The position numbers and the translations under genes were made by a program. Below are positions 3,661 through 57,127 of a DNA stretch of 64,000 nucleotides, piece by piece (within the stretch, counting starts at the first letter, position 1; each line of letters opens with the position of its first letter). A model generated the notes under the pieces. That model was not told the DNA's origin. It searched no databases and saw only the letters and a program-made list of their open reading frames with translations. The stretch is from Candidatus Woesebacteria bacterium (GTDB lineage: Bacteria > Patescibacteriota > Microgenomatia > UBA1400 > UBA1396): NCBI GenBank assembly GCA_963749595.1, contig CAVVNJ010000003.1, positions 25,532 through 89,531 on the forward strand, read 5' to 3'.

Positions 3661-3690
3661 GTGCGTCCAAGGTTAGTCCCTCAAATTCCT
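3638..3690 (+). repeat. Gene-end repeat module, copy a: 13-bp palindrome AAGGTCAGACCTT + CCAGAGGTGA + GGTTAGTCCCTCAAATTCC
   Basis: aaggtcagaccttccagaggtga at 3638-3660 and ggttagtccctcaaattcc at 3671-3689. Related copies lie at 28306-28358 and 59991-60057. It supplies the last codons (GQTFQR*) and stop of the dut ORF. Confidence 0.7.
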
Positions 3691-14490: not shown

Positions 14491-14898
14491 TTAAAACGGA
14501 TTTGACACTTGAATTTCGGAATATCGCCTCAGATGACGGATGTTATCGGTGGCGATTTCGGTAATGTGATTGGTTATTGCTGTGGCTACCAAATAGGCGT
14601 CGAAAGTTTCCGCTCCGCTGACGCGGTATTTCCCGATTAACTCCAAAGCCAAATCGAGAGTTTCCCAGGTTGGAGAAATGATTTTAGCCTGATCGGTAAT
14701 TTCCCGAATCGCCTTGATGGCTAGTTTTGTGGAGAACGGTTTGGGAAAATTAGGATGGGTAAGAATTCGCAAACTTTCCAAAATGTTTTGTTGGGCGAAG
14801 ATTAGTTTTTTTTGCGATTGAAGAAAGTCCTGGGCCGCTTGGTTCTTAGGTGAATCGCTGTTAAGGGAATAGATCAGAATATTAGAATCGATCAGCAT
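14491..14898 (-). CDS. vapC: PIN-domain toxin VapC
   Basis: MLIDSNILIY (first acidic residue), DAYLVATA and TDNIRHLRR. It is 135 aa and overlaps the upstream antitoxin gene. Confidence 0.85.
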   Translation of the reverse strand: MLIDSNILIYSLNSDSPKNQAAQDFLQSQKKLIFAQQNILESLRILTHPNFPKPFSTKLAIKAIREITDQAKIISPTWETLDLALELIGKYRVSGAETFDAYLVATAITNHITEIATDNIRHLRRYSEIQVSNPF

Positions 14899-15112
14899 AA
14901 ATTTTTTCCCGATCTAGATTATCCAATGGCCGACCAAGACTGCGGCTCTGAAAAACTATTTTTCGCGCCTTTTGGCGGCTACCATTTCTGAGATAATCTT
15001 CTAGTGCCTTACCAAGTAAGTCTTGGAAAGAAATATCTAGCTCCAAAGCTTTAGCGGTAGCCGTTTTCTTTAAAGCTGGATGAAGTCGAACTGTGGTGCG
15101 TAATAATTGCAT
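14882..15112 (-). CDS. vapB: VapB-type antitoxin (ribbon-helix-helix-like)
   Basis: 76-aa ORF overlapping vapC by 17 nt. It starts with a strand-helix pattern, TTVRLHPALKKTATAKALELDISFQDLLGKALEDYL. Confidence 0.7.
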   Translation of the reverse strand: MQLLRTTVRLHPALKKTATAKALELDISFQDLLGKALEDYLRNGSRQKARKIVFQSRSLGRPLDNLDREKIYADRF

Positions 15113-18615: not shown

Positions 18616-18845
18616 TTAACTTTTTGCAGGATCGGATCCTGCAGCCGAGATAAAAAATAATCATTCTCGGCTAGAAAAATTATAGACGCCAGCATGCGTA
18701 TTTTCTTCGGCTATTAATTGGGTGAATGTTTGATACGATAAGCCCAGTTCTAATTCCCGGTGAGGGGACAAGTATCACCGCTCGCAAGAGTTGGTGATAC
18801 TTTGCTGTTACAATCTCAAAATTGCTTTTCCAGGCTAGGTGAATC

Positions 18846-18858
18846 AAGGTCTGACCTT
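18846..18858. promoter_or_regulatory. 13-bp palindrome AAGGTCTGACCTT in the -35 position of the promoter of the DHH gene
   Basis: The same palindrome (central base complemented) occurs at 3638-3650 and 28306-28318, and a variant AAGGTTAAACCTT at 60007-60019. Here it ends 7 nt before TATCAT (18866-18871). Confidence 0.5.
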
Positions 18859-18879
18859 AATCTGGTATCATACACAGGC

Positions 18880-19734
18880 ATGGATCACCCGAATCGAATT
18901 ATTGTTACTCACCGCAGCCCGGACTTAGACGCCATCGGCGCGGTTTGGTTGTTGAAGCGCTTTCTATCGGCTGATTATGCTGACGCAGACGTACTTTTTG
19001 TTCCAGCAGGACAGGTTTTGGCCGCCGAAACCGCCGCCCAATTCGGCGTGCCGCTAACCAAAGTGATCCATGTTGATACTGGAATGGGGGAATACGACCA
19101 CCACCAGCCGGGCCGAGGTGGCAAACGAATCTGTGCCACCAGCTTGGTTTATGATCTGGTCGTCAAAATTCAAAAAGACAAACTTTACGACCGCGCCTTA
19201 CGTTATTTAGTCGAGTACATTACCTCGATCGACCATTTTGAGGAAGCCAGTTGGCCTGCTGCCGATGACCCGCGCTATCAATTAATGGCCCATGGAATTA
19301 TCGCCGGGGCCAAATACTCCGGCCAATATGACGATGACAGTATGACTCGGTTTGGCGGCGAGGTGCTGGATGCGGCGTATTCGGCTTTACGCGCCGATGT
19401 GAAAGCCGACGAAGTAATTCAGACCAAGGGCACGACGATGAAGATCGGCCGCTGGAAAGTGCTGGCCATTGCCAGTTCTAATGGTGAAGTTGAGAAGCGG
19501 GCCCAAAAAGTCGGTTATGATCTGGCGATTAGAAAAGACGAGGGCTTTGGCAGTGTCCGCATCAAGGCCACGCCGGAGTCGGGGATTGATTTGACTCCGG
19601 TTTATGAAGAGATCCTGAAGAAAGATGCAGTTGGCACTTGGTTTTTGCACAATTCCCAACGTATGTTATTGAACGGTTCCAGCAAAAATGAAACGCAGAT
19701 TGCCCAGCCCATTGTCGTTAACCCAGATCGTTGA
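18880..19734 (+). CDS. DHH-family phosphoesterase
   Basis: IIVTHRSPDLDAIGAVWLLKRF (motif I) and GEYDHHQPG (DHH motif). Start moved to the ATG at 18880. Confidence 0.7.
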   Translation: MDHPNRIIVTHRSPDLDAIGAVWLLKRFLSADYADADVLFVPAGQVLAAETAAQFGVPLTKVIHVDTGMGEYDHHQPGRGGKRICATSLVYDLVVKIQKDKLYDRALRYLVEYITSIDHFEEASWPAADDPRYQLMAHGIIAGAKYSGQYDDDSMTRFGGEVLDAAYSALRADVKADEVIQTKGTTMKIGRWKVLAIASSNGEVEKRAQKVGYDLAIRKDEGFGSVRIKATPESGIDLTPVYEEILKKDAVGTWFLHNSQRMLLNGSSKNETQIAQPIVVNPDR

Positions 19735-19790
19735 GATCGTTAAAGAACAACTCTCCTGAGGATCGTCCCCATGTGGTACAATACGCCTCT

Positions 19791-22377: not shown

Positions 22378-22444
22378 ATCGAAGCGATATTATATCACGA
22401 TTGGTTGGATCTGGAAGATATGACCTTACTTAGGCGGAGTAAAT

Positions 22445-26990: not shown

Positions 26991-28328
26991 ATGTCCGGTT
27001 TAGCGCCGCGTTTGCCCCCGCAGAACACCGAGGCCGAAGAGAGCGTGCTCGGATCATTACTTTTGGACAAGGACGCCATCATTCAGGTGGCTGATATTCT
27101 CCGGGCGGAACACTTTTACTTGCCCGGACACAAAGCAATTTACCAGGCGGCGACCGAACTTTATGAGGCCCGTGAGCCGATCGACTTGGTCACCATCACT
27201 AACCAGTTGCGCAAAAATAAAGCCCTTTCCCAGTCCGGCGGCGGTTCATATTTAACGCGCCTGACCACGGTGGTTCCCACCGCCGCGCACGCCAAACATT
27301 ACGCTCAGATCGTCAAGGGTATGTACACCAAACGCGAGGTGATCGCGATGTCCTCCGAACTGACCGAGAAATCTTTTGACACCGGGGTGGAACCGACAGA
27401 ACTCTTGGACGCGGCTGAGCAGCGGATCTTTACCTTGTCGCGCAGTCACGTGCGCGGCGGCTTCATTCCGATGAAGGATATTCTGGTGGATAGTTTTGAT
27501 CGGATCGAGGAGCTGCATAAAAATCAATCCGGAGTACGGGGCGTGGCCACCGGTTTTAATGATCTGGATAGCATGCTCAGCGGTTTGCAGAAGTCCAACT
27601 TGATTATTCTGGCCGCCCGTCCAGGCATGGGAAAAACCGCCTTATCCCTCAACATCGCTCAAAATGCGGCCGTGCTATTTAAAAAGAAGGTGGCCTTTTT
27701 CTCACTCGAAATGAGCAAGGAAGAGCTAATTGATCGTCTGGTTGTGGCACAAGCTGATATCGACGCCTGGAAACTAAAGACCGGTCGTTTGGGAGAAGAT
27801 GATTTTGCCCGGCTCTCGCACGCGATGGGCGTCCTCTATGAGGCTCAGATCTTCATTGACGACACGCCTGGATTGTCGCTGAACGAACTTCGCACCAAGG
27901 CCCGCCGCCTAATGATGGAGCATGAAATTGATTTATTTATCGTCGATTATTTGCAGCTGGTTCACGGCTATACCAAGGATAATCGGGTCCAAGAAGTGGG
28001 CGAGATTTCCCAGGGTTTGAAAAATATTGCCCGCGAGCTACAGGTGCCGGTATTGTCCCTGGCTCAGCTTTCCCGTGCCGTGGAAAGTCGGGGGACCAAA
28101 GAGCCGCAGCTTTCAGATTTGCGCGAATCGGGTTCTATCGAGCAGGATGCCGACGTAGTCTTGTTTATGTATCGGCCGGATGACGATATTCGCGAACAAA
28201 TGAAGCTGAAAATTGCCAAGCACCGCAATGGCGGGCTGGGGGACATTGATTTGTTCTTCCGGGGCGACCGCATCCGTTTCTACGGCATGGAAACGGCGCG
28301 CCCCAAAGGTCAGACCTTCCAGGCTTGA
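26991..28328 (+). CDS. dnaB: Replicative DNA helicase DnaB
   Basis: PPQNTEAEESVLGSLL, Walker A ARPGMGKTAL, FSLEMSKEEL, FIVDYLQL and LAQLSRAVESR. The last codons (GQTFQA*) come from gene-end repeat copy b. Confidence 0.95.
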   Translation: MSGLAPRLPPQNTEAEESVLGSLLLDKDAIIQVADILRAEHFYLPGHKAIYQAATELYEAREPIDLVTITNQLRKNKALSQSGGGSYLTRLTTVVPTAAHAKHYAQIVKGMYTKREVIAMSSELTEKSFDTGVEPTELLDAAEQRIFTLSRSHVRGGFIPMKDILVDSFDRIEELHKNQSGVRGVATGFNDLDSMLSGLQKSNLIILAARPGMGKTALSLNIAQNAAVLFKKKVAFFSLEMSKEELIDRLVVAQADIDAWKLKTGRLGEDDFARLSHAMGVLYEAQIFIDDTPGLSLNELRTKARRLMMEHEIDLFIVDYLQLVHGYTKDNRVQEVGEISQGLKNIARELQVPVLSLAQLSRAVESRGTKEPQLSDLRESGSIEQDADVVLFMYRPDDDIREQMKLKIAKHRNGGLGDIDLFFRGDRIRFYGMETARPKGQTFQA

Positions 28329-28358
28329 GGGGTACCCAGGGTCAGACCCTAAGTGATG
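28306..28358 (+). repeat. Gene-end repeat module, copy b
   Basis: aaggtcagaccttccaggcttga (28306-28328) plus cagggtcagaccctaagtga (28337-28356). It spans the stop codons of both convergent genes (dnaB and 28349-28591). Confidence 0.7.
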
Positions 28359-28607: not shown

Positions 28608-28693
28608 AGGAATCATTCCTACTCAACCCAACCTCAGGAGGAATCATTCCGGAATGATTCCTCCAGGCATGGGAGTAGGTAGGAATGATTCCT
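28608..28693. promoter_or_regulatory. Four copies of a 13-bp palindrome AGGAAT(C/G)ATTCCT upstream of the tRNA-Leu promoter
   Basis: Copies lie at 28608-28620, 28639-28651, 28650-28662 and 28681-28693. The two central copies form a perfect 28-bp palindrome (28637-28664). TATAAT at 28700-28705 is 12 nt before the tRNA 5' end. Confidence 0.6.
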
Positions 28694-28717
28694 TAGTGGT
28701 ATAATTGGACTGCTCAG

Positions 28718-29285: not shown

Positions 29286-29305
29286 TGTACTAGTATACTA
29301 GTACA
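29286..29305. promoter_or_regulatory. Perfect 20-bp palindrome TGTACTAGTATACTAGTACA in a 42-bp divergent intergenic region
   Basis: It lies between the starts at 29272 (-) and 29315 (+, lgt). A 19/20 copy with conserved flanks lies at 47739-47758. Confidence 0.6.
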
Positions 29306-30117: not shown

Positions 30118-30465
30118 ATGAGTCATTTGACCGCGGACCAAATTAATCGATTGCAGTCGATACTTGAGGAAAAGTTGACCGGGCTGCATGGCTTCAAGAC
30201 CAGCATGATCGAGGAAAATCCGATCAATAATCCTGATCGGGTCGAAGAGAACGAGGCTGGTGATGATGCCGTTGAGGAGTTTGGGATTCTAAATGCCGAA
30301 ACTCTGGAACAAGCCTCCGGCGACATGATTGATGAAGTTGAGGCGGCGTTGCTGCGGATTAAAGCCGGCACCTACGGCCATGATGAAATAACCGGCGAGC
30401 CGATTCCTTTCGAAAGACTGCTGGTTGTTCCCGAAGCGCGCACCGCCGCCCGCGACATGGCATGA
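30118..30465 (+). CDS. DksA/TraR-family-like protein lacking the zinc-finger cysteines
   Basis: An acidic coiled-coil region is followed by AALLRIKAGTYGHDEITGEPIPFERLLVVPEARTA, which is collinear with G.YG.Ce.CGe.I...RL...P.a..C but without Cys. Confidence 0.45.
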   Translation: MSHLTADQINRLQSILEEKLTGLHGFKTSMIEENPINNPDRVEENEAGDDAVEEFGILNAETLEQASGDMIDEVEAALLRIKAGTYGHDEITGEPIPFERLLVVPEARTAARDMA

Positions 30466-30902
30466 GGATCGTCCTATCCCGACTTCACGCCTGGAGGGAT
30501 CGTCCCGGGATCGTCCTCCTGGTATTGCTCGATCAGGCCAGCAAGCTATTTTTTCCCTATCAAATCAACCCAGGTGTCGCTTTTTCCTTGGGCAGCGGAT
30601 TGCCACCAGTATTGGTAACCTCGATCCTGATCGTCTTGGTCGGAGTTATATTTTGGCTTACCCGCTCGTGGCTAAACGACGGCCTATCTCGATTGGCTCG
30701 GTCATTTTTATTAGCCGGCGCACTTTCCAATCTTATTGATCGATTGTTTTTGGGAGGCGTTCGCGATGTCTGGAAGTTGCCGTTTCTAGGTGTGCAAAAT
30801 AACTTGGCTGACTGGTTGATCGTCATTGGCGCCGCTATATTCGGTTGGCAACAATACCGCACCTGGCGGGAAGTCGAGTCAGAGGATAAAATACCGGCAT
30901 GA
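30462..30902 (+). CDS. lspA: Lipoprotein signal peptidase (signal peptidase II)
   Basis: DQASKLFF, NPGVAFSLG and AGALSNLIDRLFLGGVRDV. The N-terminal codons are built from the GGATCGTCC repeat. Confidence 0.85.
   Translation: MRIVLSRLHAWRDRPGIVLLVLLDQASKLFFPYQINPGVAFSLGSGLPPVLVTSILIVLVGVIFWLTRSWLNDGLSRLARSFLLAGALSNLIDRLFLGGVRDVWKLPFLGVQNNLADWLIVIGAAIFGWQQYRTWREVESEDKIPA
30464..30517 (+). repeat. GGATCGTCC-repeat element, copy A (three direct 11-mers), at the 5' end of lspA
   Basis: The 11-mers are gaggatcgtcct (30464), gggatcgtccc (30496) and gggatcgtcct (30507). About 85% identical over ~47 nt to 31948-31994. Confidence 0.7.
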
Positions 30903-31708: not shown

Positions 31709-32833
31709 CATCGCGTCGCCAAAACTGAAAAAACGATATTTTTCTTGGATCGCTTCGTGGTAGGCTTTTCCGATCGAGCTTGTCTGAAAATCGACGAACT
31801 TTTCCCCGGTCTGCGGCCAACTAGTGAAGGCTGAGACTAGCATCAACAAAGTTGATTCCGGTAGGTGGAAGTTGGTAATGAGCGCATCGGCGGCTCGAAA
31901 ACGGTAGGGGGGGTAAACGAACAAACTGGTTTCGCCGCTACCGGCTCGGGATCGTCCTCTGCCTTCCCCACGCCTGGGGGGATCGTCCCGGGACGATCCC
32001 TCTTGAGGTAGCGAAGGCAGAGGACGATCCTCAAAAGTTGATTCCAGAGTTCGGAGAGCAGTGGTGCCTACGGCGACGATTCGTCTGCCAGCCTCGCGAG
32101 CGGTGTTGATTTTCTTCGCCGCGGCGGGGCTAACCTCATACCACTCACTGTGCATCTGGTGTTGTTCGATTTCATTTTCCTTAACCGGCAGAAACGTGCC
32201 TAGGCCCACGTGCAAAGTAATCTCGACTGTCTCGATGCCCGTGGTTTTCAGTTGAGTCAATAGCTCTGGCGTAAAGTGCAGGCCGGCGGTTGGCGCGGCA
32301 GCCGAACCTGGCTCGTGGCCAAAGACGGTTTGGTAGCGTTCCGGATCGCCGACGAATTTTTTGATGTAGGGCGGGGTAGGCAAGGAGCCCAATTTGTCGA
32401 GAGCGGCCAACAACTCGGTTCCGGCCAGCGAAGTTCGGACTCGGCGGGTATAGCCCTCATCAACCAGACATTCGATGACTAGCTGATGATTCTCATTGAT
32501 AAATTCGACCTTTTGGCCAATCTTCAACCCGGGTTTAGTCAGCGCTTCCCAAACCTCTGAATACATTTCTTGTTCAATGCGCTTGGTCAGTAAAATTTCT
32601 ACCTCGCCACCCGTTGGTTTGCGACCGATCAGCCGAACCGGCAAGACGCGGGTGTTATTCAAAACCAGCAAGTCGCCGGGACGCAGCAGGGCGGGGAGAT
32701 CAAAAAAATGGTGGTGGGCAATTTGGCCAGTAGTCCGATCCAGCCTCAACAGCCGGCTGACGTCCCGGCGCGCCAGCGGCGTCTGGGCAATCAAATCGCT
32801 TGGTAGATCGTAGGAAAATCGTGATAGCTTCAC
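31697..32833 (-). CDS. queA: S-adenosylmethionine:tRNA ribosyltransferase-isomerase with an internal ~28-codon palindromic insertion
   Basis: VKLSRFSYDLPSDLIAQTPLARRD (GTG at 32833), HFTPELL and ALITNFHLPESTLLMLVSAF. The low-complexity insert is DRPLPSLPQEGSSRDDPPRRGEGRGRSRAGS. Confidence 0.9.
   Translation of the reverse strand: MKLSRFSYDLPSDLIAQTPLARRDVSRLLRLDRTTGQIAHHHFFDLPALLRPGDLLVLNNTRVLPVRLIGRKPTGGEVEILLTKRIEQEMYSEVWEALTKPGLKIGQKVEFINENHQLVIECLVDEGYTRRVRTSLAGTELLAALDKLGSLPTPPYIKKFVGDPERYQTVFGHEPGSAAAPTAGLHFTPELLTQLKTTGIETVEITLHVGLGTFLPVKENEIEQHQMHSEWYEVSPAAAKKINTAREAGRRIVAVGTTALRTLESTFEDRPLPSLPQEGSSRDDPPRRGEGRGRSRAGSGETSLFVYPPYRFRAADALITNFHLPESTLLMLVSAFTSWPQTGEKFVDFQTSSIGKAYHEAIQEKYRFFSFGDAMLIE
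31948..32031. repeat. GGATCGTCC-repeat element, copy B: nested palindrome inserted in frame in queA
   Basis: The outer 18-bp inverted repeat is ggatcgtcctctgccttc (31949-31966) with gaaggcagaggacgatcc (32013-32030). The inner perfect 22-bp palindrome is gggatcgtcccgggacgatccc (31979-32000). Confidence 0.8.
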
Positions 32834-32876: not shown

Positions 32877-33734
32877 GTGATTGATATGTTGAGATGGGGA
32901 TTAGGAGGCGAGAAGAGCAGAGAACCAACTCCGGCGGAGCGTCGCCAAAAGCGGGAGAAAATCGCCAAATTGATCGCGCAAGAGAGTCGGGGCGACAAGT
33001 TAAAAGCCTTTACCTTACTGGCTGCTCGGCTCCATTACCCCTTAAGTGAACGTCATCTTTTAGCGATCTTATTTTCCTTAAGCGAGCGTCTGGCGTCGCG
33101 AGTTCAGGATTTTTCGATTATCATCAGTGATGAGGCCAGCGGACGAATTCCTAGCCTGATTTTTCAAGAAGTTTTGAATCGAAAACGAAAGCAACTTGAT
33201 CTGTCGCCACTCATGATTTCTTTTTTGCTGGGCGGAAAGGTGAATAAGTTTCAAGCTGAGGCGGTTCACGATTTCGTGACTCACCCCCCAAAGTCTTTGA
33301 CCGACGATCTTAGTCGACCATTAATCGTGACCGAATATATGCACAGCGGCGACAGCATGAAAAATTTCTTGGAAGCATTCTATAAAAATGGAATTCAGCC
33401 GGTGGTGGCAGCGGTGAGTATCGATCGGAGAATAGCGGAGTATCAATCTCTATTCAGCAAAGATGAAGATCTCCAATCTGGGCACAAATCGTTAGAAGAT
33501 GTTCTCCTGATTGGTGATGACGCCAAAACCAGCAAAGCTTATGGAGCGGCCTTCCATGGCAGTCCTGATGTGACCGGTGTCATCCGGAGCAAGTCTGGCA
33601 AAAGTGCCCACCCGGTATTGTTGCGCCAGGCAGAGCCAACGCTCGATAAGGCGGGGGCTCAGGATAAAATTATCCAGTCTCGCGACGAGGCAGCGCTGGT
33701 GGCGGAAGTGTTTGCTAGACTGTTGAAGATATAG
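32877..33734 (+). CDS. PRT-fold (HGPRT-like) array paralog 1
   Basis: TPAERRQKREKIA; IIISDEASGRIPSL; FLLGG; LIVTEYMHSGDSM; VVAAVS; SAHP; EAALVAEVFARLLKI*. The start is GTG at 32877 or ATG at 32886. Confidence 0.8.
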   Translation: MIDMLRWGLGGEKSREPTPAERRQKREKIAKLIAQESRGDKLKAFTLLAARLHYPLSERHLLAILFSLSERLASRVQDFSIIISDEASGRIPSLIFQEVLNRKRKQLDLSPLMISFLLGGKVNKFQAEAVHDFVTHPPKSLTDDLSRPLIVTEYMHSGDSMKNFLEAFYKNGIQPVVAAVSIDRRIAEYQSLFSKDEDLQSGHKSLEDVLLIGDDAKTSKAYGAAFHGSPDVTGVIRSKSGKSAHPVLLRQAEPTLDKAGAQDKIIQSRDEAALVAEVFARLLKI

Positions 33735-33744
33735 GAAGGAATAA

Positions 33745-34578
33745 TTGGCCACAAGATCTCACGACATCCCAACTCCGGCCGAAAGACGTCAGGAACGGGA
33801 AAAAATTGCCCAAAAAATTGTGACCGAGAGTCGGGGTAATCAGCGCAAAGCCCTTAAATTACTGGCGGAACAACTTAGCCCCCCGCTGGGCCATTCTGAA
33901 CTTTTGGTTTCTTTGTTTGCCATGGCTGAGCGCTTGCTGCCGCGTTCCGGGGAATTTGAAATAATTGTCAGCGATGAAACTAGTGGTCGTATTCCCAGTT
34001 TAATTTTTCAAGATATTCTTAATCGCCAACGGTCCAAAATAAATAAGGACCCCTTGGTTATTTCTTTCTTACTTGGTGGCAGAATTAGTAAGGTTCAAGC
34101 TCGGGCGGTCCAGAATTTTGTGGCCATTCCGCCAAAGTCACTGGCCGAAAAGCTTCGCCAACCGTTAATTGTCACTGAATATGTCGACCGCGGCTTAAGT
34201 CTACAAGCCTTTCTAAACACTTTTTACCGACAAGGAATTAGTCCAGTCGTGGCAGCGGTAAGCGTTAGAGAGGACCCAGCATTCTACCGATTTATCTTTG
34301 AAAAAAATCCGAGTCAGCCTTCCGGAAAAAAAACGCTCAACGATTTATTTATCGTCGGCGATTCACTGGAACATGAAGGGGGCTGGGGTGTATTTTTTCG
34401 CGACAATCCACTCGGTAGTGGTGTGGTAAAAGGTGGTAAGGAAAAAAGTCCGCACCCAGCGTCGGTTCTCCAATCGACTGCGACGCTAAATAAAGAAGAA
34501 ATTCGAGCCAAAATAAAAAAGTCTCGCGACGAGGCAGCGCTGGTGGCGGAAGTATTTGCTAGACTTCTAAAATTGTAA
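33745..34578 (+). CDS. PRT-fold (HGPRT-like) array paralog 2
   Basis: TPAERRQEREKIA; IIVSDETSGRIPSL; FLLGG; LIVTEYVDRGLSL; VVAAVS; SPHP; EAALVAEVFARLLKL*. TTG start. Confidence 0.8.
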   Translation: MATRSHDIPTPAERRQEREKIAQKIVTESRGNQRKALKLLAEQLSPPLGHSELLVSLFAMAERLLPRSGEFEIIVSDETSGRIPSLIFQDILNRQRSKINKDPLVISFLLGGRISKVQARAVQNFVAIPPKSLAEKLRQPLIVTEYVDRGLSLQAFLNTFYRQGISPVVAAVSVREDPAFYRFIFEKNPSQPSGKKTLNDLFIVGDSLEHEGGWGVFFRDNPLGSGVVKGGKEKSPHPASVLQSTATLNKEEIRAKIKKSRDEAALVAEVFARLLKL

Positions 34579-34586
34579 GGAGAATA

Positions 34587-35387
34587 ATGCCTAAAACTCG
34601 ACCTATCGACCAATCGACTACAGCTGAAAAGCGCCGGATTAACGCGGAAAAAATCCTACAAATTGGCTCAGGTAATTGGGAGCGGACGCTGACCGAGCTA
34701 AAGACTAGTTTGAACCGACCGGAGTTGAAGAGTACCGGGATATTAGAAACGATGTTCGATCTTTGTGAAAAACTCCGCCCGATAGCAACTGATCTTGATG
34801 TGATCATTAGCGACGAAGCGAGTGGGCGGGTGCCGAGTCTCATTATTAAATCTACTCTTGATGCCTTTAGAGAACAGCAAGGTTTGCCCCCACTTAAAAT
34901 TTTTTTCCTCGTGGGAGGTTATTCTACTTTTGAACAAAAAGATTCTGTCGCCGAGTTTGTTCGCACGCACGCTGTAGAATTCCGCCGGAGCTTGATCGTG
35001 ACCGAAATAATCGAATCGGGCGAAAGTATACGCGAATTTCTCAAACCTTTTTCCCAGAATGGCCTGAAACCGATCGTGGCCAGCGTATCGGTTGCTCGTG
35101 ATCCTAGTACGTATCGTCAGTTGTTCTCCAATAAGCTGATTTATGGAGAGGTTGCTCGTGGTGGAGCCGGGCAGATATTTTACGGACTGGCTGGCCGCCG
35201 GATGGCAGGGATTGTTAAGGGGAGTCGATCGGTGGCCCATCCGGAGAGCTTAAAAGCCAGACTGAATGAGCCGACAATGAAAGCCGAAGCTCAGCGGGGA
35301 ATTCAACTAGCTCGTTCAGACATTGCCTTGATCGGTCAGGTTTACGCTGGCTTGTTAAGCGGAAAAGAAAGGCCAAAAAATGTTTAA
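34587..35387 (+). CDS. PRT-fold (HGPRT-like) array paralog 3
   Basis: TTAEKRRINAEKI; VIISDEASGRVPSL; FLVGG; LIVTEIIESGESI; IVASVS; VAHP; SDIALIGQVYAGLL. An SD aaggag is present. Confidence 0.8.
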   Translation: MPKTRPIDQSTTAEKRRINAEKILQIGSGNWERTLTELKTSLNRPELKSTGILETMFDLCEKLRPIATDLDVIISDEASGRVPSLIIKSTLDAFREQQGLPPLKIFFLVGGYSTFEQKDSVAEFVRTHAVEFRRSLIVTEIIESGESIREFLKPFSQNGLKPIVASVSVARDPSTYRQLFSNKLIYGEVARGGAGQIFYGLAGRRMAGIVKGSRSVAHPESLKARLNEPTMKAEAQRGIQLARSDIALIGQVYAGLLSGKERPKNV

Positions 35388-36165
35388 AAAAACTCGGCCC
35401 GTCGACGTCCAGTCTCCAGCTGATCGTCGACGAAACTTGGCGAAAATCATCACTCAGGGAAAAACTCCCGACGTTGCATTAAGACTAACCGCCGCGAAAG
35501 TACCGGATTCTCTTTTTAACAACCATGAACTTTTACAGGCAATCTATGGTCTTTGCGAAAAACTAGTGCCTCTGGCTAAAGAGATTGAGATAATTGTTGG
35601 CGACGATGCTAGCGGGCGGCTGCCAAGCTTACTGATAAAACACAGCTTGGATGCTGTGCGCCAAAAAATGGGTCTACCGCCTATACCGATTCGCTTTATC
35701 GCTTCGGGGAGGTCAACCGGTGAACAAACCGAGGCTGTTCGTCACTACTTGGAAGAGCATAAGTCTGAACTAGCGTCAGCGGTGATTGTAACCGAGTTTA
35801 TGAGCAGCGGGGAAAGTATGGCTGAGTTGGTAAGAATGTTCAGGGGGCTGGATTTAGAGCCGATCGTCGCGGCGGTGTCAATTGGTGGTGAGCCAGAGTT
35901 TTATCGGGAGAAGATACAGGCAAAAATCATTTATGGTCAGATCGGGCAAGCGGGCCTCGATTTTTACGGCTCTAAGAGTAGGCCATTTTCTGGTGTGAAT
36001 AAAAAAATGGGCGCGCGTGATAGTGCCCACTCCGAACCGACCAAAAAATATGAGGCAAAAACCAAGGAACAGCAAATTGATGTTCAGAGGACAATAAATG
36101 CGGCCCGCGATGATGTGGCTTTGGTGGGTGAGGTTTTCTCCAGGCTGTTGGCGAGGAGAAAATAG
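35380..36165 (+). CDS. PRT-fold (HGPRT-like) array paralog 4
   Basis: SPADRRRNLAKI; IIVGDDASGRLPSL; FIASG; VIVTEFMSSGESM; IVAAVS; DDVALVGEVFSRLL. Confidence 0.8.
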   Translation: MFKKTRPVDVQSPADRRRNLAKIITQGKTPDVALRLTAAKVPDSLFNNHELLQAIYGLCEKLVPLAKEIEIIVGDDASGRLPSLLIKHSLDAVRQKMGLPPIPIRFIASGRSTGEQTEAVRHYLEEHKSELASAVIVTEFMSSGESMAELVRMFRGLDLEPIVAAVSIGGEPEFYREKIQAKIIYGQIGQAGLDFYGSKSRPFSGVNKKMGARDSAHSEPTKKYEAKTKEQQIDVQRTINAARDDVALVGEVFSRLLARRK

Positions 36166-36184
36166 TTATTTACACTGGAGCCAA

Positions 36185-36943
36185 ATGAAATCAAGAACCA
36201 TCGATCAAAAAACTGTATCTGAGATTGTGATGCCTGGGGATAAAGACAAGATTTTGGAGGCTTTGGCCGGGCGCTTAAGAAGCAATTTCCAATCTATCGA
36301 AGTGCTCCAATCTTGTTATGAGCTTTGCGCTCAGTTGGCCCGAGATCCTGGCCGCTATGACACCATCATCAGCGATGATGCTAGTGGGCGATTAGTCAGC
36401 CTATTAGTCAAATCGGTTTTAGATCGAACACGGGAGAGAAAGGGGCTCAAGCCGCTGAATTTACGCTTTGTAGCCGGAGGAATCAACCGTTCCGATCAGA
36501 AAATAGCTATTCGAGAATATCTAGCAAAACATCATTCAGAATTTGGTCGGATCTTGTTAGTAACCGAAATTGTGGATACTGGAGATAGTATGCGCAATTT
36601 GCTACGACTTTTTGCTGATTTCAAATTAAGTCCTGATGTTGCCAGTGTCTCAATTGCAAAATTACCGGATAAATACCATGTCTTATTTTCGAACAAGCTA
36701 ATTTACGGAAGTCTTGGTTACGCTGGAGGCAATCTTTATGGTTTCGATTCCCGTCGGCAAGCGGGGGTAGATAAAAAGAGCACAGCGTCTTCCGCTCATC
36801 CGGCAAGTCTGAGAGCCACCGAGCTTAGGGGAGGCAACCAAAGAGTGGCACAACAAATACAATCAAGTGTTAATCAGACGAGGAAGGAGATCAATCTTAT
36901 CTCAGCTGTTTTTTTGCGCTTAATGGATTCAGAGAGAGTATGA
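36185..36943 (+). CDS. PRT-fold (HGPRT-like) array paralog 5
   Basis: TIISDDASGRLVSL; FVAGG; LLVTEIVDTGDSM (closest to the canonical PRPP loop); VASVS; SAHP. Start moved to the ATG at 36185, which has an SD. Confidence 0.8.
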   Translation: MKSRTIDQKTVSEIVMPGDKDKILEALAGRLRSNFQSIEVLQSCYELCAQLARDPGRYDTIISDDASGRLVSLLVKSVLDRTRERKGLKPLNLRFVAGGINRSDQKIAIREYLAKHHSEFGRILLVTEIVDTGDSMRNLLRLFADFKLSPDVASVSIAKLPDKYHVLFSNKLIYGSLGYAGGNLYGFDSRRQAGVDKKSTASSAHPASLRATELRGGNQRVAQQIQSSVNQTRKEINLISAVFLRLMDSERV

Positions 36944-37728
36944 GCCGTCGGACATCAGACCAATTACTGTCAGAATTTCACCCCTCAAAGGCGGATCAAA
37001 TTCGTCATAGTGCCGCACAAATTATTCAGGAGGTAGATGGAAGCAAAGAACAGACCCTGCTATTGCTAGCCGACCAACTCCATCATCCCTTAAATAGTGA
37101 GGCACTAATCACGGCGTTGTTTTCCTTAAGTGAGCAATTAGTACTTCAAGAAAAGGATTTTCAAATTCTGGTCGGTGATGAATCAAGCGGTCGTTTGCCA
37201 AGCTTACTAGTCAAAAAACTATTCGATTCCGTGCGAAGGAAGAGAAATTCACCCCCAATTCCGTTTATTCCACTGATCGGTGGCGGATTGAGGGGGGAAC
37301 AAAAAGCGGCTTTGGAAGATTATATTGCCCAGAATCGTGGGAAATTGCAGGGTGCTTTGATCGTGACGGAATACATCCAGTCCGGCGAGAGCATGCATGA
37401 TACTTTAAACATTTTTCGTCGGTATGATCTTCATCCCACTGTAGCGGCAATTTCAGCAGCGGCAGAAAGAGGTGCTTATCTGGGCTTGATTCCGAATAAA
37501 TTGGTACTCGGGAAAGATCAATCGAATGTAGGAGTTTATCTATGGAGCAAGGCTCGAGCGGCAGGTGTAGAGAAGCGGACTTCTGCTGGCCCGCACCCGG
37601 TGGCTCTAAAAAACAGAATCAGCGATCCGGATGAGCGACGGGAAATTCAGGAGAATATTAATCAGTCGCGGCGAGATATCGCTCTGATTGCCGAGGTGTT
37701 TGCCCAGCTGTTGGAACGAAAAAAATAG
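36940..37728 (+). CDS. PRT-fold (HGPRT-like) array paralog 6
   Basis: ILVGDESSGRLPSL; LIGGG; LIVTEYIQSGESM; TVAAIS; GPHP; RDIALIAEVFAQLL. ATGA overlap with paralog 5. Confidence 0.8.
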   Translation: MSRRTSDQLLSEFHPSKADQIRHSAAQIIQEVDGSKEQTLLLLADQLHHPLNSEALITALFSLSEQLVLQEKDFQILVGDESSGRLPSLLVKKLFDSVRRKRNSPPIPFIPLIGGGLRGEQKAALEDYIAQNRGKLQGALIVTEYIQSGESMHDTLNIFRRYDLHPTVAAISAAAERGAYLGLIPNKLVLGKDQSNVGVYLWSKARAAGVEKRTSAGPHPVALKNRISDPDERREIQENINQSRRDIALIAEVFAQLLERKK

Positions 37729-37740
37729 TACACTCGGGTT

Positions 37741-38610
37741 ATGAAAAAAATATCTCCTGACCAAATAGATACTATTTTTCAAGAGACCTCAGCTGATACC
37801 GCTGATGAGCGCAATGGAGCGGTTCTACTGAAATTATCTGAACATTTGAAAAGTAATCTTGACACTCCCGAAGTGTTATCAGCGTGCTATGAATTGTGCA
37901 AAAAATTAGCGGCTGATCCGGCAAAATACGATACCATCATCAGCGATGATGCCAGTGGCCGCTTGCCCAGTTTGTTGCTGAAAGAAATCTTAGATCAACT
38001 CCGAATCCGGCAAAATCTACCCCCCCTAAAGATCTGGTTTTTGTCCGCCGGTAGAAATCGATTAGAACAACGCGAGGCGATTGCCAAGTTCATTAATCAG
38101 CATCTTGACGATCTGCACCATGCCCTGATTGTTACCGAAATCGTTGATTCCGGCGAAAGCATGAAGAATTTCTCGCAAATATTCAAAAATTTTAGTTTGC
38201 TTCCTGATATCGCTAGTGTCTCTGCGGTCGTCGATCCCAGCTATTATCAGGGACTTTTTGTTAATCAATTGATTGTGGGTCAACAGGGCAGGGTTGGCGG
38301 GTATCTTCATGGCGAAGCGGCTCGATTCCAAGCAGGAGTGTCCAAGCAAGGCATGCGCCAACCCAGCGCTCATCCGCAATCTCTTCGCGAGGCGGCGCGT
38401 CCTGGGGATCGAGTGGATGTGCAAAGAGAAGTGAATCGTACGCGCCAAGAGATAGGCCTAATTGCTAAAGTATTTCTTAAGCTGTTAGAAATTGAGGAGA
38501 AGGAGGCAGGTGAAAACAAGGGTAGTGGATCAAACAAACAATCAGGAACGACCGGCAACCCAAGCCGAAGAATTGAGGATACAAGCGGAAACTATCATCG
38601 GAGAAAGTGA
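37741..38610 (+). CDS. PRT-fold (HGPRT-like) array paralog 7, with a ~40-aa C-terminal read-through overlapping paralog 8
   Basis: TIISDDASGRLPSL; FLSAG; LIVTEIVDSGESM; IASVS; SAHP; EIGLIAKVFLKLLE. It then continues for about 40 aa instead of stopping. Confidence 0.75.
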   Translation: MKKISPDQIDTIFQETSADTADERNGAVLLKLSEHLKSNLDTPEVLSACYELCKKLAADPAKYDTIISDDASGRLPSLLLKEILDQLRIRQNLPPLKIWFLSAGRNRLEQREAIAKFINQHLDDLHHALIVTEIVDSGESMKNFSQIFKNFSLLPDIASVSAVVDPSYYQGLFVNQLIVGQQGRVGGYLHGEAARFQAGVSKQGMRQPSAHPQSLREAARPGDRVDVQREVNRTRQEIGLIAKVFLKLLEIEEKEAGENKGSGSNKQSGTTGNPSRRIEDTSGNYHRRK

Positions 38611-39295
38611 GGGGGATGTAAAAAAAGCTCTGAAAGAGCTGGCCCAACAAGTCGACTCACCGTTAAATAAACCGGATTTGCTCGAAGCCATGTATTTATT
38701 GTGCGAGAAGCTGATTTCCCGGGTAGAAGAATTCTCGGTAATTATCAGCGACGAATCAAGCGGAAGGCTAGTTAGCTTGTTGGTAAAAAATCTGTTTGAC
38801 CGAAAGCGCTCATCGCCGGTGCCAATTACTTTTTTATTAGGCGGAAGGCTAGATTCGCCGCAGCGCAAGAACGTGATCGATTATCTGCGTCAACATCGAT
38901 CGAAATTGCAAAATGCTTTAATTGTTTCCGAATATCTTGAGTCGGGTGACAGCATGGCCGAGTTTTTGGCGGATTTTCGTTTGCAGAATCTGAAAGCCAA
39001 GGTAGCAGCGGTGTCCGCCATTGGAGTGGGCAATAGATATAGTCGATTATTTCCGGAAGAACTAATTGCCGGCAAGCTTTCTTCATCGGTTGGTATTTGG
39101 TTGCATGATGAATCTCTAGCCACTGGTGTTGACAAAAACTTTGCCGAGGGTCCATTTCCGAATCGGATTAAAGACGAAGACGAAACTTGGTCTCAACAGA
39201 AAAAAATAAGGATGCAGCACTCGGTTAATCAGGCTCGTCGGGACATTGCCTTGATTGCTGAAGTTTTTGCCCAGATGTTTGGACTACCGAGATGA
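38510..39295 (+). CDS. PRT-fold (HGPRT-like) array paralog 8
   Basis: GGAGG-cag-GTG start. VKTRVVDQTNNQERPATQAEELRIQAE; VIISDESSGRLVSL; FLLGG; LIVSEYLESGDSM; VAAVS; RDIALIAEVFAQMF. Confidence 0.8.
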   Translation: MKTRVVDQTNNQERPATQAEELRIQAETIIGESEGDVKKALKELAQQVDSPLNKPDLLEAMYLLCEKLISRVEEFSVIISDESSGRLVSLLVKNLFDRKRSSPVPITFLLGGRLDSPQRKNVIDYLRQHRSKLQNALIVSEYLESGDSMAEFLADFRLQNLKAKVAAVSAIGVGNRYSRLFPEELIAGKLSSSVGIWLHDESLATGVDKNFAEGPFPNRIKDEDETWSQQKKIRMQHSVNQARRDIALIAEVFAQMFGLPR

Positions 39296-39324
39296 TATAA
39301 ACTTGGCTGAGGAGGGGGAGGACA

Positions 39325-40116
39325 GTGAAAACAAGAGTAGTGGATCAGGTAACCAATCAGGAACGATCGGCAACCCGGGCCGAAGAATTGAAAATACAAG
39401 CGGAATCTATCATCGAAAGCAATAAAGGGTTATATAAATCAACCTTGAAGGAGTTGTCCAGACAGGTAAAGTTTCCACTAAATCAACCGGATTTGTTGGA
39501 CCCAATGTATTTGCTGTGCCGGAAGCTAATTCCCCGATCTGAGGAATTTAAGGTGATTGTTAGTGATGAGGGTAGTGGGCGACTGGTTAGTTTATTAGTC
39601 AAGGATCTGTTCGATCGTCGGCGCCTAGCTCCGATACCAATAACTTTTATACTCGGAGGAAGAATGACTCCTTCACAACGGAAGAAGGTGAGTGAACATT
39701 TTGCTCGGCACCGATCGGAATTAGATCACGCCTTAATTGTTTCCGAATATCTTGAATCTGGTAATAGCATGGCCAAATTTCTGGCCGACTTTCGCCAACA
39801 AAATTTGCAGGCAACGGTCGCTACCATCTCGGCTTTGGAATCGAGCGAAGAATATCGCCAATTATTTTCGGAAGAACTTATTGTCGGCCAATTACGTTCG
39901 AGCAGCGGTTTACAGTTGTATCGTGAGCCTGATGCCACTGGTGTTGAGAAGCGCTCTGCCGAAGGTCCGTTTCCAGATCGGATTAAGGATGAGGCCGAGT
40001 CTCTGACTAAGGCTGAAAAAATTAGCATCCAGCGTCCAATCAACCAAGCCCGCCGGGACATCGCTCTCATTGCAGAGGTGTTCGATAGATTATTAAAGAG
40101 CAACGAGGTTTCATGA
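39325..40116 (+). CDS. PRT-fold (HGPRT-like) array paralog 9
   Basis: GTG start after GGAGG. VKTRVVDQVTNQERSATRAEELKIQAE; VIVSDEGSGRLVSL; FILGG; LIVSEYLESGNSM; VATIS; RDIALIAEVFDRLL. It is the closest relative of paralog 8. Confidence 0.8.
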   Translation: MKTRVVDQVTNQERSATRAEELKIQAESIIESNKGLYKSTLKELSRQVKFPLNQPDLLDPMYLLCRKLIPRSEEFKVIVSDEGSGRLVSLLVKDLFDRRRLAPIPITFILGGRMTPSQRKKVSEHFARHRSELDHALIVSEYLESGNSMAKFLADFRQQNLQATVATISALESSEEYRQLFSEELIVGQLRSSSGLQLYREPDATGVEKRSAEGPFPDRIKDEAESLTKAEKISIQRPINQARRDIALIAEVFDRLLKSNEVS

Positions 40117-40907
40117 TGAAGTCACGACCGTTCGATACTCAATCTGATTCTCGTCAGCGTAAGGCTGAGGAAAGAGAGAAAATAGCCTCTGAAATAATCG
40201 ACCTTAACCAGGGAGACCTGGGACGAACTTGGGTTTCGTTAGCCGAAAAAGTTCATTTTCCTTTTGATAGCGAAAAATTGATCAGGGTAATGTTCCAATT
40301 AAGTGCGAAGCTAATTGCGCGCGAGTCGGAGTTTAAGAGGCTGATTAGCGATGAAGCGAGTGGTCGGTTGCCAAGTTTAATAATTAAGGATTTATTTGAC
40401 CGACGGCGGAAAGAGCGGGGGCAGGAAGAGATGCCATTATTATTCTTGTTGGGTGGAAGAATGCCAGATCAGCAGCATAGAGTGGTGCGGGAATACGTTT
40501 TAAAGCATCGGCATGAACTAGCGCAATCGCTGGTGGTTTCAGAATACATCGCTTCTGGTGAAAGCATGGCTTGGTTTTTAGATATTTTCCGGCAATTTGG
40601 TTTGGAGCCAGTGGTCTCCGCGGTTACTTGTCGCTATGGTCAGAAAGACTACAAAGTCCATTTTCCCAATGAGCTAATCGTTGGTGCCGACGATAGTACG
40701 ACCGGCCAGTATCTATGGAGTAAAGGATTAGCAACCGGAGTGGAAAAACCGCCAGAATCGGTGAAAAATCCTCCGCCTTTTCCGGAAGTTCGCAAAAATT
40801 ATCAGTGGTCGACTAGTTCCCGTGAGGCCCAGCAGGCCATATTGCGAGCGAGGGAAGACGTAGCCTTAATTTCGGAAGTATTTGCTCGATTGTTGAATAT
40901 TCAATAA
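40113..40907 (+). CDS. PRT-fold (HGPRT-like) array paralog 10
   Basis: RLISDEASGRLPSL; FLLGG; LVVSEYIASGESM; VVSAVT; EDVALISEVFARLL. ATGA overlap with paralog 9. Confidence 0.8.
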   Translation: MMKSRPFDTQSDSRQRKAEEREKIASEIIDLNQGDLGRTWVSLAEKVHFPFDSEKLIRVMFQLSAKLIARESEFKRLISDEASGRLPSLIIKDLFDRRRKERGQEEMPLLFLLGGRMPDQQHRVVREYVLKHRHELAQSLVVSEYIASGESMAWFLDIFRQFGLEPVVSAVTCRYGQKDYKVHFPNELIVGADDSTTGQYLWSKGLATGVEKPPESVKNPPPFPEVRKNYQWSTSSREAQQAILRAREDVALISEVFARLLNIQ

Positions 40908-40915
40908 GTTGACTT

Positions 40916-41785
40916 ATGCCAGGAAGAATTAATCGATTATCAAACGACGAAGGTGCCAGTGACTCAGCCGAAAAACGTCGCGAGTTAAAAGTACTAGCCG
41001 CCAAGATTCTTGCTGAGGGCGGACAAGATCGCGACCAGACTCTAAAATTGCTTGCCGAGAGTCTGAAGTCGCCACTGAGAGATTTTGGCTTGCTAAAGGC
41101 GCTATATTCATTAAGTCAACAACTATTACCACGATCGAATGATTTCGCAGTGATTGTCAGTGACGAAGCCAGTGGACGAATACCGAGTTTATTAGTTAAA
41201 GAGCTCTTTGATCGAGTGCGATTGAATCGGGGAGAGACCAAAATTCCAATCACTTTTTTGCTAGGTGGGTACACTCTACCTCAACAAAAGGCAAAGGTGG
41301 CAGATTTTGTTGCTGGACACAAAGGGGAGTTGGAACAGGCGCTAATCGTCTCGGAATTTATGATGTCCGGAGAAAGTATGGCAAATACTTTGGAAGATTT
41401 TCACCGACAGGGTTTGGATCCGACGGTAGCGGCAGTATCCACTTGGTACAAAAAGGGTGAATATAAACGTCTTGCTTCAGATAAATTAGTGATTGGGGTT
41501 GACGATGACAATATCGGCGCCACCAGATTGTGGGGGGAAACTACCTCCTCTGGAGTGGTTAAGCTCGAAACCTCGCCTGGGCCGCATCCGGAGTCGACAA
41601 AACTGGTGAAGAAGGGAAATGACCTGCACGATATGTCAGAGATTGACTTCGCGGAACCAGTTCAGAAAGACATCGCTTTGGCTAGGGGAGAGATTTATCT
41701 TGTGGCGGAGGTATTTTTTGGTATGCTAGCCTCGCCTCCCAAACAGTCTTGGCTTCAGCGTTTAAAAAATGGGGGGAAAGAATAA
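40916..41785 (+). CDS. PRT-fold (HGPRT-like) array paralog 11
   Basis: VIVSDEASGRIPSL; FLLGG; LIVSEFMMSGESM; TVAAVS; GPHP; GEIYLVAEVFFGML plus a short tail. Confidence 0.8.
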   Translation: MPGRINRLSNDEGASDSAEKRRELKVLAAKILAEGGQDRDQTLKLLAESLKSPLRDFGLLKALYSLSQQLLPRSNDFAVIVSDEASGRIPSLLVKELFDRVRLNRGETKIPITFLLGGYTLPQQKAKVADFVAGHKGELEQALIVSEFMMSGESMANTLEDFHRQGLDPTVAAVSTWYKKGEYKRLASDKLVIGVDDDNIGATRLWGETTSSGVVKLETSPGPHPESTKLVKKGNDLHDMSEIDFAEPVQKDIALARGEIYLVAEVFFGMLASPPKQSWLQRLKNGGKE

Positions 41786-42580
41786 ATGCAACCGCGAGTT
41801 AATGTATTAAATTTGCGTCAGGAGAAAGACAGCCAGGCTGAGGTTCGTCGGGAGTTGCGTAAGCTGGCTGAGCAAATATTGAAACGGGGAAATGGTGAAA
41901 AACAGAAGACCTTGAAGTTGCTGGAAAAATATCTTGAATACCCGTTTGAAGTCGATGTTCTTAAAGCAATGTTCTCGCTTAGTCAGCAATTAATTTCCCG
42001 GTCCGACAGTTTTGATACGATTATTGGTGACGAAGGCAGTGGTCATTTAATAGCCTTAATGTTAAAGGAGGTCTTTGATCGCGAGCGGGTGAAGCGTGGG
42101 CAGGAGAAAATTCCAATTACTTTTTTGCTGGGTGGCTTGACTACCGATGGCCAGGAAAAAAAAGTTAATGAGTTTGTCGGACAACACCAGGCTCAGCTGA
42201 GTCGTGCACTGATTGTTACGGAATATATCTTGTCCGGGCGAGGCATGGTTAATTTGCTGAAGAGCTTTTCGCACTATGGCCTGACGCCGGTTTTAGCCGC
42301 AGCAACTACCCAATATGAGAAGAAAGACTATGCTGAACTTTTTGGGGTCGAGTTAGTCATTGGTACTGAAGAGAGTGGCGCGGGATTGAATTTATATTCT
42401 AAACCCGCCTTGACTGGGGTACAAAAAAGGCCGGAGAGCCCCGGTCCTCACGCTGAAGCATATAAAAAACTGGTTTCCCAGTTAGGGTTGAAAAAAGAAA
42501 TCCAGAGAGAAGTTAACTTTGGTCGTGACCAGGTTTTTCTGATTGCCGAGGTTTTTTACGGACTACTACAGTCCAAATGA
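41786..42580 (+). CDS. PRT-fold (HGPRT-like) array paralog 12 (most divergent)
   Basis: TIIGDEGSGHLIAL; FLLGG; LIVTEYILSGRGM; VLAAAT; GPHA; DQVFLIAEVFYGLL. It starts immediately after the paralog 11 stop. Confidence 0.8.
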   Translation: MQPRVNVLNLRQEKDSQAEVRRELRKLAEQILKRGNGEKQKTLKLLEKYLEYPFEVDVLKAMFSLSQQLISRSDSFDTIIGDEGSGHLIALMLKEVFDRERVKRGQEKIPITFLLGGLTTDGQEKKVNEFVGQHQAQLSRALIVTEYILSGRGMVNLLKSFSHYGLTPVLAAATTQYEKKDYAELFGVELVIGTEESGAGLNLYSKPALTGVQKRPESPGPHAEAYKKLVSQLGLKKEIQREVNFGRDQVFLIAEVFYGLLQSK

Positions 42581-47738: not shown

Positions 47739-47758
47739 TGTACTAGTGTACTAGTACA
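47739..47758. promoter_or_regulatory. Second copy (19/20) of the 20-bp palindrome TGTACTAGT(G)TACTAGTACA with conserved flanks
   Basis: 47734-47770 (tttcatgtactagtgtactagtacatagaaaaagatg) is near-identical to 29281-29317 (ttccatgtactagtatactagtacaagaaaaagtatg), including the ATG. Confidence 0.6.

Positions 47759-50577: not shown

Positions 50578-50585
<8 letters not shown>
50178..50585 (-). CDS. Hypothetical helical protein, paralog of the 49669-50127 product
   Basis: See 49669-50127. Its start overlaps the gyrA stop region. Confidence 0.55.

Positions 50586-53374
<2,789 letters not shown>

Positions 53375-55078: not shown

Positions 55079-57127
<2,049 letters not shown>

Follow-up and report, generated by a model that had tools for sequence, protein, structure and literature searches.

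A putative family of miniature palindromic repeats with fixed direct-repeat spacing at gene ends of a Patescibacteria genome

The REP/BIME/REPIN elements of Enterobacteria and Pseudomonas are short imperfect palindromes, 20-40 bp in the case of REP, that fall into several subfamilies and form mosaics with conserved non-palindromic motifs. They lie outside genes, with a concentration at gene ends, are found alone or paired as inverted hairpin doublets, and draw on a palindrome repertoire common to related species. The Rickettsia palindromic elements (RPE), selfish repeats of 100-150 bp confined to Rickettsiales, insert in frame into otherwise intact open reading frames (ORFs) of a reduced genome. 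The Neisseria intergenic mosaic elements (NIME), in which RS segments are flanked by dRS3 repeats, and the Correia elements combine palindromic repeats (ATTCCC-N8-GGGAAT) with conserved segments in intergenic mosaics; they alter gene ends and can provide promoters, stops or processing sites. In fungal mitochondria, mobile GC clusters and double-hairpin elements are palindromic insertions of 30-50 bp that spread within a compact genome, where coding regions can also be entered. Here we describe repeats of ~45 or ~85 nt in a 64-kb stretch of a Candidatus Woesebacteria genome (contig CAVVNJ010000003.1; hereafter the window, to which all positions refer). They are built of short palindromes repeated directly around a spacer and most of them sit on gene boundaries, among them the end of dnaB. 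With a probability of roughly 0.6, we regard them as lineage-specific, non-autonomous miniature interspersed repeats comparable to REP, BIME, REPIN and RPE. This reading as selfish repeats is favored because the copies have diverged, form subfamilies, occur as singlets and doublets, are present or absent between relatives, are confined to places that leave reading frames working and intrude in frame into genes.

The census of units covers the 64-kb window. Syntenic DNA of relatives was gathered through protein look-ups and amounts to ~130 kb of related loci, designated below by L numbers where they have to be told apart. The DnaB and the VirD4-like protein of the window have their best relatives in metagenome bins of Patescibacteria (Woesebacteria/Pacebacteria-type), and the window genome belongs to the Patescibacteria (Candidate Phyla Radiation, CPR).

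Architecture and census of the units

Three modules of ~49 nt, co-oriented on the + strand, lie at 3638-3686 (A), 28306-28354 (B) and 60007-60055 (C). The 13-nt palindrome AAGGTYNRACCTT has four matches in the window (at 3638, 18846, 28306 and 60007), against 0.02 expected from shuffled sequences; the longer left and right patterns AAGGTYARACCTTCCAG and GGTYARWCCCTMA have three matches each, all on the + strand and only at the modules, and a whole-window repeat search groups A, B and C into one 44-nt family with 68-75% identity. Since pattern counts and repeat search recover the same three places, the three-module repeat that a first-pass annotation of the window had reported is real. That annotation also placed A and B correctly, but it began C at 59991, whereas the module proper spans 60007-60055 and the DNA at 59991-60006, on its 5' side, is an extra partial repeat, CCAAGGTTCCCTGGCT. 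The right-hand motif of each module is no separate kind of site but, as had been overlooked, a direct repeat of the left-hand 9-mer, 31-32 nt downstream of it. In module A, GGTCAGACC (3640-3648) and GGTTAGTCC (3671-3679) enclose the spacer TTCCAGAGGTGAGTGCGTCCAA (3649-3670); in module B, two identical copies of GGTCAGACC (28308-28316 and 28340-28348) enclose TTCCAGGCTTGAGGGGTACCCAG (28317-28339); and in module C, GGTTAAACC (60009-60017) and GGTTAATCC (60040-60048) enclose TTCCAGAGGTGAAAAATACCTC (60018-60039). Written out, A reads TGAAGGTCAGACC TTCCAGAGGTGAGTGCGTCCAA GGTTAGTCC CTCAAA, B reads AAAGGTCAGACC TTCCAGGCTTGAGGGGTACCCAG GGTCAGACC CTAAG and C reads CTAAGGTTAAACC TTCCAGAGGTGAAAAATACCTC GGTTAATCC CTAAG. 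The outer flanks of A are complementary (TTGA...TCAA).

The general plan of a unit is P-I-P, where P is a 9-11-nt GG..CC near-palindrome (GG-N5-7-CC) and the ~22-nt spacer I combines a conserved 5' half or core (YYCCWGRSNTGR) with a variable 3' part. Two types of spacer core can be recognized, CCWGAGGTKR and CCAGGCNTGR. The window holds nine units, five of which carry other palindromes (GGACGATCC or GGAATGATTCC), and two unit pairs are arranged head to head as inverted doublets of ~85 nt that form hairpins. In one common orientation, the units with other palindromes read GGAATGATTCC-TCCAGGCATGGGAGTAGGTA-GGAATGATTCC, GGACGATCC-CTCCAGGCGTGAAGTCGGGATA-GGACGATCC and GGACGATCC-CCCCAGGCGTGGGGAAGGCAGA-GGACGATCC.

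The palindrome match at 18846, described earlier as a bare palindrome, has the spacer core of the modules in front of it, TTCCAGGCTAGGTGA (18828-18847), and belongs to a unit that lacks the left P (unit E, I-P, 18828-18858, + strand; nhmmer E = 3e-4); its spacer reads TTCCAGGCTAGGTGAATCAA (18828-18847) and its palindrome GGTCTGACC (18848-18856). On the upstream side, this P stops 9 nt short of the -10 hexamer of a conserved extended -10 promoter, TGGTATCAT (18863-18871), followed by the ATG of a DHH-family gene at 18880. The first inverted doublet (28608-28693, 86 nt, P = GGAATGATTCC), composed of 28608-28650 on the - strand and 28651-28693 on the + strand, is situated between the start of the membrane gene convergent with dnaB and the tRNA-Leu promoter TGGTATAAT (28697-28705). 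The second (31949-32033, P = GGACGATCC) lies within queA, with 31949-31989 on the - strand and 31990-32030 on the + strand. Unit U9 (30463-30519, - strand) contains three copies of the P GGACGATCC together with the spacer CTCCAGGCGTGAAGTCGGGATA. A solitary P (TGA-GGATCGTCC-CCA, 19757-19771, + strand) stands directly upstream of the S21 promoter TGTGGTACAAT, and a possible decayed unit, AAGGTCATATCTTCCAG (22411-22427, - strand), occupies the space from a small-gene stop to the L31 promoter TGATATAAT; it differs from the 17-mer at two positions and lacks significance by itself. Another occurrence of GGATCGTCC, at 29033, falls in a conserved codon stretch without an insertion and was set aside as a chance match.

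A scan of the window free of assumptions about the motif, for direct repeats that are exact over 9 nt or more and lie 28-35 nt apart, returned seven cases, and six of these are P-I-P units, including B; all six are spaced 31-32 nt, all have the GG..CC form and in each the CCWG core comes after it. Nine-mer direct-repeat matches number 14, against ~2 in shuffles, and the palindromes GGACGATCC (nine copies in the window) and GGTCWGACC (five copies) are each expected ~0.5 times. A profile of the nine units retrieves exactly those nine in the window and has no match in the ~130 kb of related loci; in Rfam, no family was matched at the gathering or at a permissive threshold. The left and right P of a unit (P_L and P_R) agree as direct repeats, and not as reverse complements, at their non-palindromic centers (CGA/CGA, G/G, A/A), and therefore duplication, rather than base-pairing in an RNA stem, explains their identity.

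Insertion sites in relatives and effects on reading frames

When the window is compared with the syntenic DNA of relatives, the units present themselves as insertions. At the end of dut, ~52 nt starting with unit A separate the stop from GCAAAAAC; the nearest relative (L022, JGI Ga0395806) has no insert there and reads ACCGGC-TAA-TAAC-GCAAAAACTGCTGG, that is, TAA, TAAC and the conserved GCAAAAAC, an empty site without P. In another relative (L021, 2547-2590), the sequence TCTCCAGATGTAGTG downstream of dut resembles the type-1 spacer core and lies at the orthologous site of unit A, the putative decayed core there being TCCAGATGTAGTG. If this is indeed a decayed copy, the insertion of unit A would be older than the split from L021. 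At the virD4-like gene, unit C lies within ~85 nt that extend from the stop (59977-59979) to a G+C-rich hairpin (60064-60085), compared with a stop, 5 nt and a terminator hairpin in the same nearest relative (L018); by this comparison, the separate hairpin after unit C is the ancestral terminator-like element. L019 has a different palindromic element at the site of unit C. The end of dnaB contains ~33 extra nt in the window, where the second GGTCAGACC keeps the TAG of the convergent membrane gene, versus CAG TCA GAC C TAA GT in L002 and L003, with a single GTCAGACC and two convergent stops that overlap.

The remaining loci give the same picture. The 86-nt doublet upstream of tRNA-Leu is absent from the same intergenic region of L001 and L002, and the relatives have no sequence like the 57-nt element at the dksA-like/lspA junction, the region of their LspA from the N-terminus to the conserved DQ..K motif being ~5 residues shorter. 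The solitary TGA-GGATCGTCC between the DHH gene stop and the S21 promoter has no counterpart in L001 and L002, which lack P and in which the stop overlaps the -10 region; the DHH-gene promoter itself is kept in L002 without the palindrome. No relative has an insert corresponding to the in-frame doublet of queA.

Palindromes of the same kind do occur elsewhere in the relatives. L002 has three GGGTCWGACCC motifs at 14627-14671 (GGGTCTGACCC twice and GGGTCAGACCC once) that make up a 45-nt palindrome between convergent genes, and L019 has two copies of CCAAGYGGGTCGATCCCGGGATAATCCCTCTYGG (GGGTCGATCCC-GGGATAATCCC), one downstream of virD4 (12172-12217) and one in frame at the N-terminus of holB (14500-14547). 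The P motifs of the relatives (GGGTCWGACCC, GGGWCGATCCC and GGWTAATCCC) are near-identical to those of the window, whereas the spacer I was found in the window only, relative to the loci compared. A small palindrome repertoire is therefore taken to be common to the clade, and the P-I-P arrangement to have expanded in the window genome.

Seven of the eight loci are at gene boundaries, compared with an intergenic share of ~7% of the window (a genome that is ~93% coding), and the description of the modules as a dispersed repeat on gene ends was borne out. The consequences for proteins are clearest at dnaB, which reads across P_L into the I of unit B and stops at a TGA at 28326-28328. The window DnaB ends ...ARPKGQT-FQA-TGA, an 89% orthologue ends ...ARPS and an 83% orthologue ...PASQT, C-termini that confirm the earlier proposal that the module gives dnaB its stop codon and last residues. 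An identical DnaB, tail KGQTFQA included, is present in a public record on a 188,675-bp contig. On the opposite strand, the stop TAG of the convergent 80-aa membrane gene (complement of 28349-28351) abuts the P_R of the same unit. The parallel proposal for dut, according to which module A supplies a GQTFQ tail and a TGA, did not survive. The GQTFQR-TGA frame at the module is not that of Dut, whose conserved C-terminal motif continues from one frame (DRGGFGS) into another (TGR-TGA); because the conserved end GGFGS-TGR matches the ends of Dut orthologues (GGFGSTGRD, GGFGSTG or GGFGSTN), the original dut stop is placed at the TGA at 3636-3638, abutting the module, so that Dut ends before it. Frameshifts in dut bear on the claim of a Dut tail. 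The genes topA, dcd and dut (860-3640) are broken by multiple frameshifts, at least five of them in dut alone, gyrA is split into three ORFs (50578-53106), and the DHH-family gene is frameshifted near its end (about 19690-19760) with the loss of its ~20 last residues. These essential genes are probably not true pseudogenes; local indel errors of the assembly are the likelier cause of the frameshifts.

At the edge of U9, the TGA at 30463-30465 is the stop of the dksA-like ORF, and the + strand reading of the unit encodes the first 19 residues of LspA. The queA doublet adds 22 residues in frame to a QueA that otherwise aligns end to end with its orthologues, and the TGA of the solitary P (19757) is the frame-corrected stop of the DHH-family gene. 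Stop triplets at unit edges or inside I (TGA-GGATCGTCC twice, TGA-AGGTCAGACC, P-CTAAG and the TGA in I) are used by neighboring genes; the edge P-CTAAG reads as TAA or, on the opposite strand, as TAG. A gene whose stop has been displaced by a unit therefore ends within a few codons, as at dnaB.

Mode of spread and competing explanations

If the units are miniature interspersed repeats, their copies would have spread by a DNA-level process that duplicates or carries the short palindrome; candidate routes are hairpin- or single-strand-directed insertion and microhomology template switching, with an enzyme acting in trans. In a genome that is so densely coding, selection would have retained only the copies that leave neighboring reading frames intact, and the FQA-TGA tail of dnaB would be a by-product of insertion, not a designed function. 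A more specific variant, which we consider doubtful, is that the ~22-nt spacer core is itself a minimal mobile DNA that integrates into GG-N5-CC palindromes and duplicates the 9-bp target. The outcome would be like the repeat-spacer-repeat left by off-target integration of a CRISPR spacer, or like a hairpin-targeted single-strand insertion, and each landing site would create a new P-I-P subfamily. This would account for the equality of P_L and P_R within a unit but not between subfamilies, for the lone P that relatives have at dnaB and at virD4, and for the complementary TTGA...TCAA flanks of unit A. If this is so, a bacterium with a minimal genome would host, in the spacer core, a self-propagating element of unusually small size, along with an integrase.

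Several results weigh against the interpretation as miniature interspersed repeats. Profiles built from one subfamily (A, B, C and E, or the other five units) fail to retrieve the other subfamily, and because profile searches give no statistical link, the connection between the subfamilies is drawn from their identical geometry and an 11-14-nt core. Exact-pattern scans of GTDB genomes, JGI metagenomes and IMG/VR found no copy, only chance matches to single halves without the second repeat. The ~50 window ORFs scanned include no transposase, RAYT, IS110 or Cas1-like gene, the sole recombinase among them being a housekeeping-type Xer protein (48186-49190). The evidence on whether P is carried with the unit or duplicated from the target is mixed: the empty dut site without P and the flanks AA-P-TT and TGA-P, common to several loci, support the former, while the one P-like sequence that relatives have at dnaB and at virD4, the identity of P_L and P_R within but not between subfamilies and the complementary flanks of A support insertion of I into a pre-existing palindrome, with duplication of 9 bp. 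Finally, three of ~11 P positions are only 7-9 nt upstream of extended -10 elements (DHH, 18848-18856; S21, 19760-19768; tRNA-Leu, 28682-28692).

This last placement speaks for a regulatory function, in which the palindromes would be operators for dimeric DNA-binding proteins, cooperative sites three helical turns apart that control the neighboring genes. The palindromes are perfect over 11-13 bp, one compensatory double change is seen (GGTC-A-GACC to GGTT-A-AACC), and the center-to-center spacing is constant at 31-32 bp. We nevertheless consider operators improbable, as one layout with three unrelated palindromes would demand three specificities in a minimal genome, the non-palindromic spacer DNA is conserved as well, the majority of copies are found at 3' ends, within queA or where the lspA coding sequence starts, and the orthologous promoters of relatives function without palindromes; moreover, duplication, and not binding, explains the identity of P_L and P_R at the central bases that define orientation. 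The original suggestion of an operator for a single dimeric protein is not supported, given the three palindromes in one layout, the conserved spacer, the copies inside queA and lspA and the empty sites in the nearest relative, features typical of inserted repeat DNA. Promoter-adjacent copies of P may still regulate incidentally or through co-option. A role in RNA, as 3'-end stabilizers, RNase processing sites or terminator substitutes of the kind known for some REP and Correia elements, is quite improbable. Modules A, B and C are in sense orientation at the 3' ends of + strand genes, the family occupies transcribed gene-boundary positions, and the doublets fold into very stable hairpins (-29.9 kcal/mol as DNA with z = -9.0 for 28608-28693, and -32.5 kcal/mol with z = -6.0 for 31949-32033). 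For single units, however, A to C included, neither the RNA nor the DNA fold is better than that of shuffles (z -1.8 to +0.6), and a U-tract is missing, in agreement with the initial view that the modules are not intrinsic terminators; U9 is antisense to its genes, unit E and the 28608 doublet precede genes, the two P of a unit repeat directly and are not complementary, and no Rfam match was obtained.

Variable segments of 9-11 nt with conserved sequence on either side also recall the guide-RNA modules of RNA-guided systems of the TIGR-Tas or IS110 bridge-RNA type, a relationship that we regard as highly implausible. TIGR systems are known from parasitic bacteria and phages, and their arrays consist of tandem 36-nt units with two different, non-covarying 9-nt spacers and 8-12-nt repeats bounded by UG...CCA, next to a tas gene with a Nop domain (PMC12045711). 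The window units are dispersed, their two 9-mers are identical, the spacer is 22 nt long, and the window ORFs scanned contain no gene for a Nop-domain protein or a DEDD transposase; as a TIGR array, the family fails every defining feature of that description (PMC12045711). Two further candidates were rejected: a selenocysteine or other recoding signal, as virD4 and the TGA in unit C are in different frames, and an att site derived from a tRNA fragment, the similarity to a T-arm being unconvincing by eye.

Other features of the window and comparison with known repeats

Conserved extended -10 promoters (TGnTAnnAT) were noted at 18863-18871, 19772-19782, 28697-28705 and, on the - strand, 22389-22397, with no recognizable -35 and only 8-14 nt from a start codon or tRNA 5' end, a distance that points to mRNAs with very short leaders, or with none, in this lineage. 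TTCCAG was tried as a -35 element and dismissed, with 2/6 matches to TTGACA and an inconsistent spacing to the -10 in relatives; TTCCAGG is common (12 occurrences versus ~8 expected). A perfect 20-bp palindrome is present in two near-identical copies, TGTACTAGTATACTAGTACA and TGTACTAGTGTACTAGTACA, at 29286-29305 and 47739-47758, each within a 37-nt repeat that ends in ATG; the first is just upstream of the lgt start, and the palindrome looks like an operator. The gap from gyrB to the virD4-like gene (57059-57834) is unusually long, at 776 nt, and contains 61-nt inverted repeats (57164-57224 and 57718-57778); the corresponding gap of L019 has four small ORFs. A tandem array at 32877-42580 comprises approximately eleven paralogous genes, 260-290 aa each, that recur every ~790-870 nt, and the one member scanned received no Pfam assignment. 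A PIN-domain gene (14491-14898, - strand) overlaps an upstream 76-aa ORF (14882-15112, - strand), and the two (14491-15112) are likely a VapBC-type toxin-antitoxin pair.

CPR/Patescibacteria genomes are regarded as streamlined and repeat-poor, a view that a family of 45-85-nt repeats alters. As the repeats rewrite the termini of dnaB and lspA and sit inside queA, selfish DNA would still be shaping these genomes and the ends of their proteins. For annotation, this is a warning that C- and N-terminal extensions can derive from repeats, and the repeats are usable as markers for strain typing. Should the direct-repeat architecture reflect a new insertion mechanism, its interest would be wider.

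Our literature search found no description of such elements in Patescibacteria. The features of REP, BIME and REPIN set out at the beginning recur in the window, namely short imperfect palindromes in several subfamilies, mosaics with conserved non-palindromic motifs, an extragenic distribution concentrated at gene ends, singlets beside inverted hairpin doublets, and a palindrome repertoire common to related species. Unlike REP, the palindromes of the window measure 9-13 bp, a stable hairpin is found only in the two doublets, each unit repeats its palindrome directly at a constant distance of 31-32 nt, the GTAG/CTAC head motif is absent, copies enter coding sequence, and there is no sequence similarity. 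A cognate RAYT was looked for among the ~50 window ORFs scanned, and no Y1_Tnp match was obtained. With RPE, the units share the character of selfish palindromic repeats in a reduced genome and the in-frame insertion into otherwise intact ORFs (22 residues in QueA; the ends of LspA and DnaB). They are unlike RPE in their length of ~45 or 85 nt and in their host, no direct-repeat P-I-P arrangement has been described for RPE, and the two are probably dissimilar in sequence.

By the criteria for MITEs (transposable elements of miniature size with inverted repeats), direct repeats of 9-11 nt do flank the spacer but recur between loci, conservation of the spacer does not reach its 3' end, an 18-bp terminal inverted repeat (TIR) exists in the window doublets only, and the empty dut site has no P. 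The dRS3 repeat of NIME is 20 bp long and a site of phage or insertion sequence (IS) integration, and the Correia elements are marked by TIRs of 26 bp and a duplication of TA; the window units show neither of these features. The fungal mitochondrial elements differ from them in host and sequence and have no direct-repeat architecture. The P-I-P family belongs within the known class of miniature palindromic repeats, in which it is unusual for its fixed-spacing direct repeats and its very small size.

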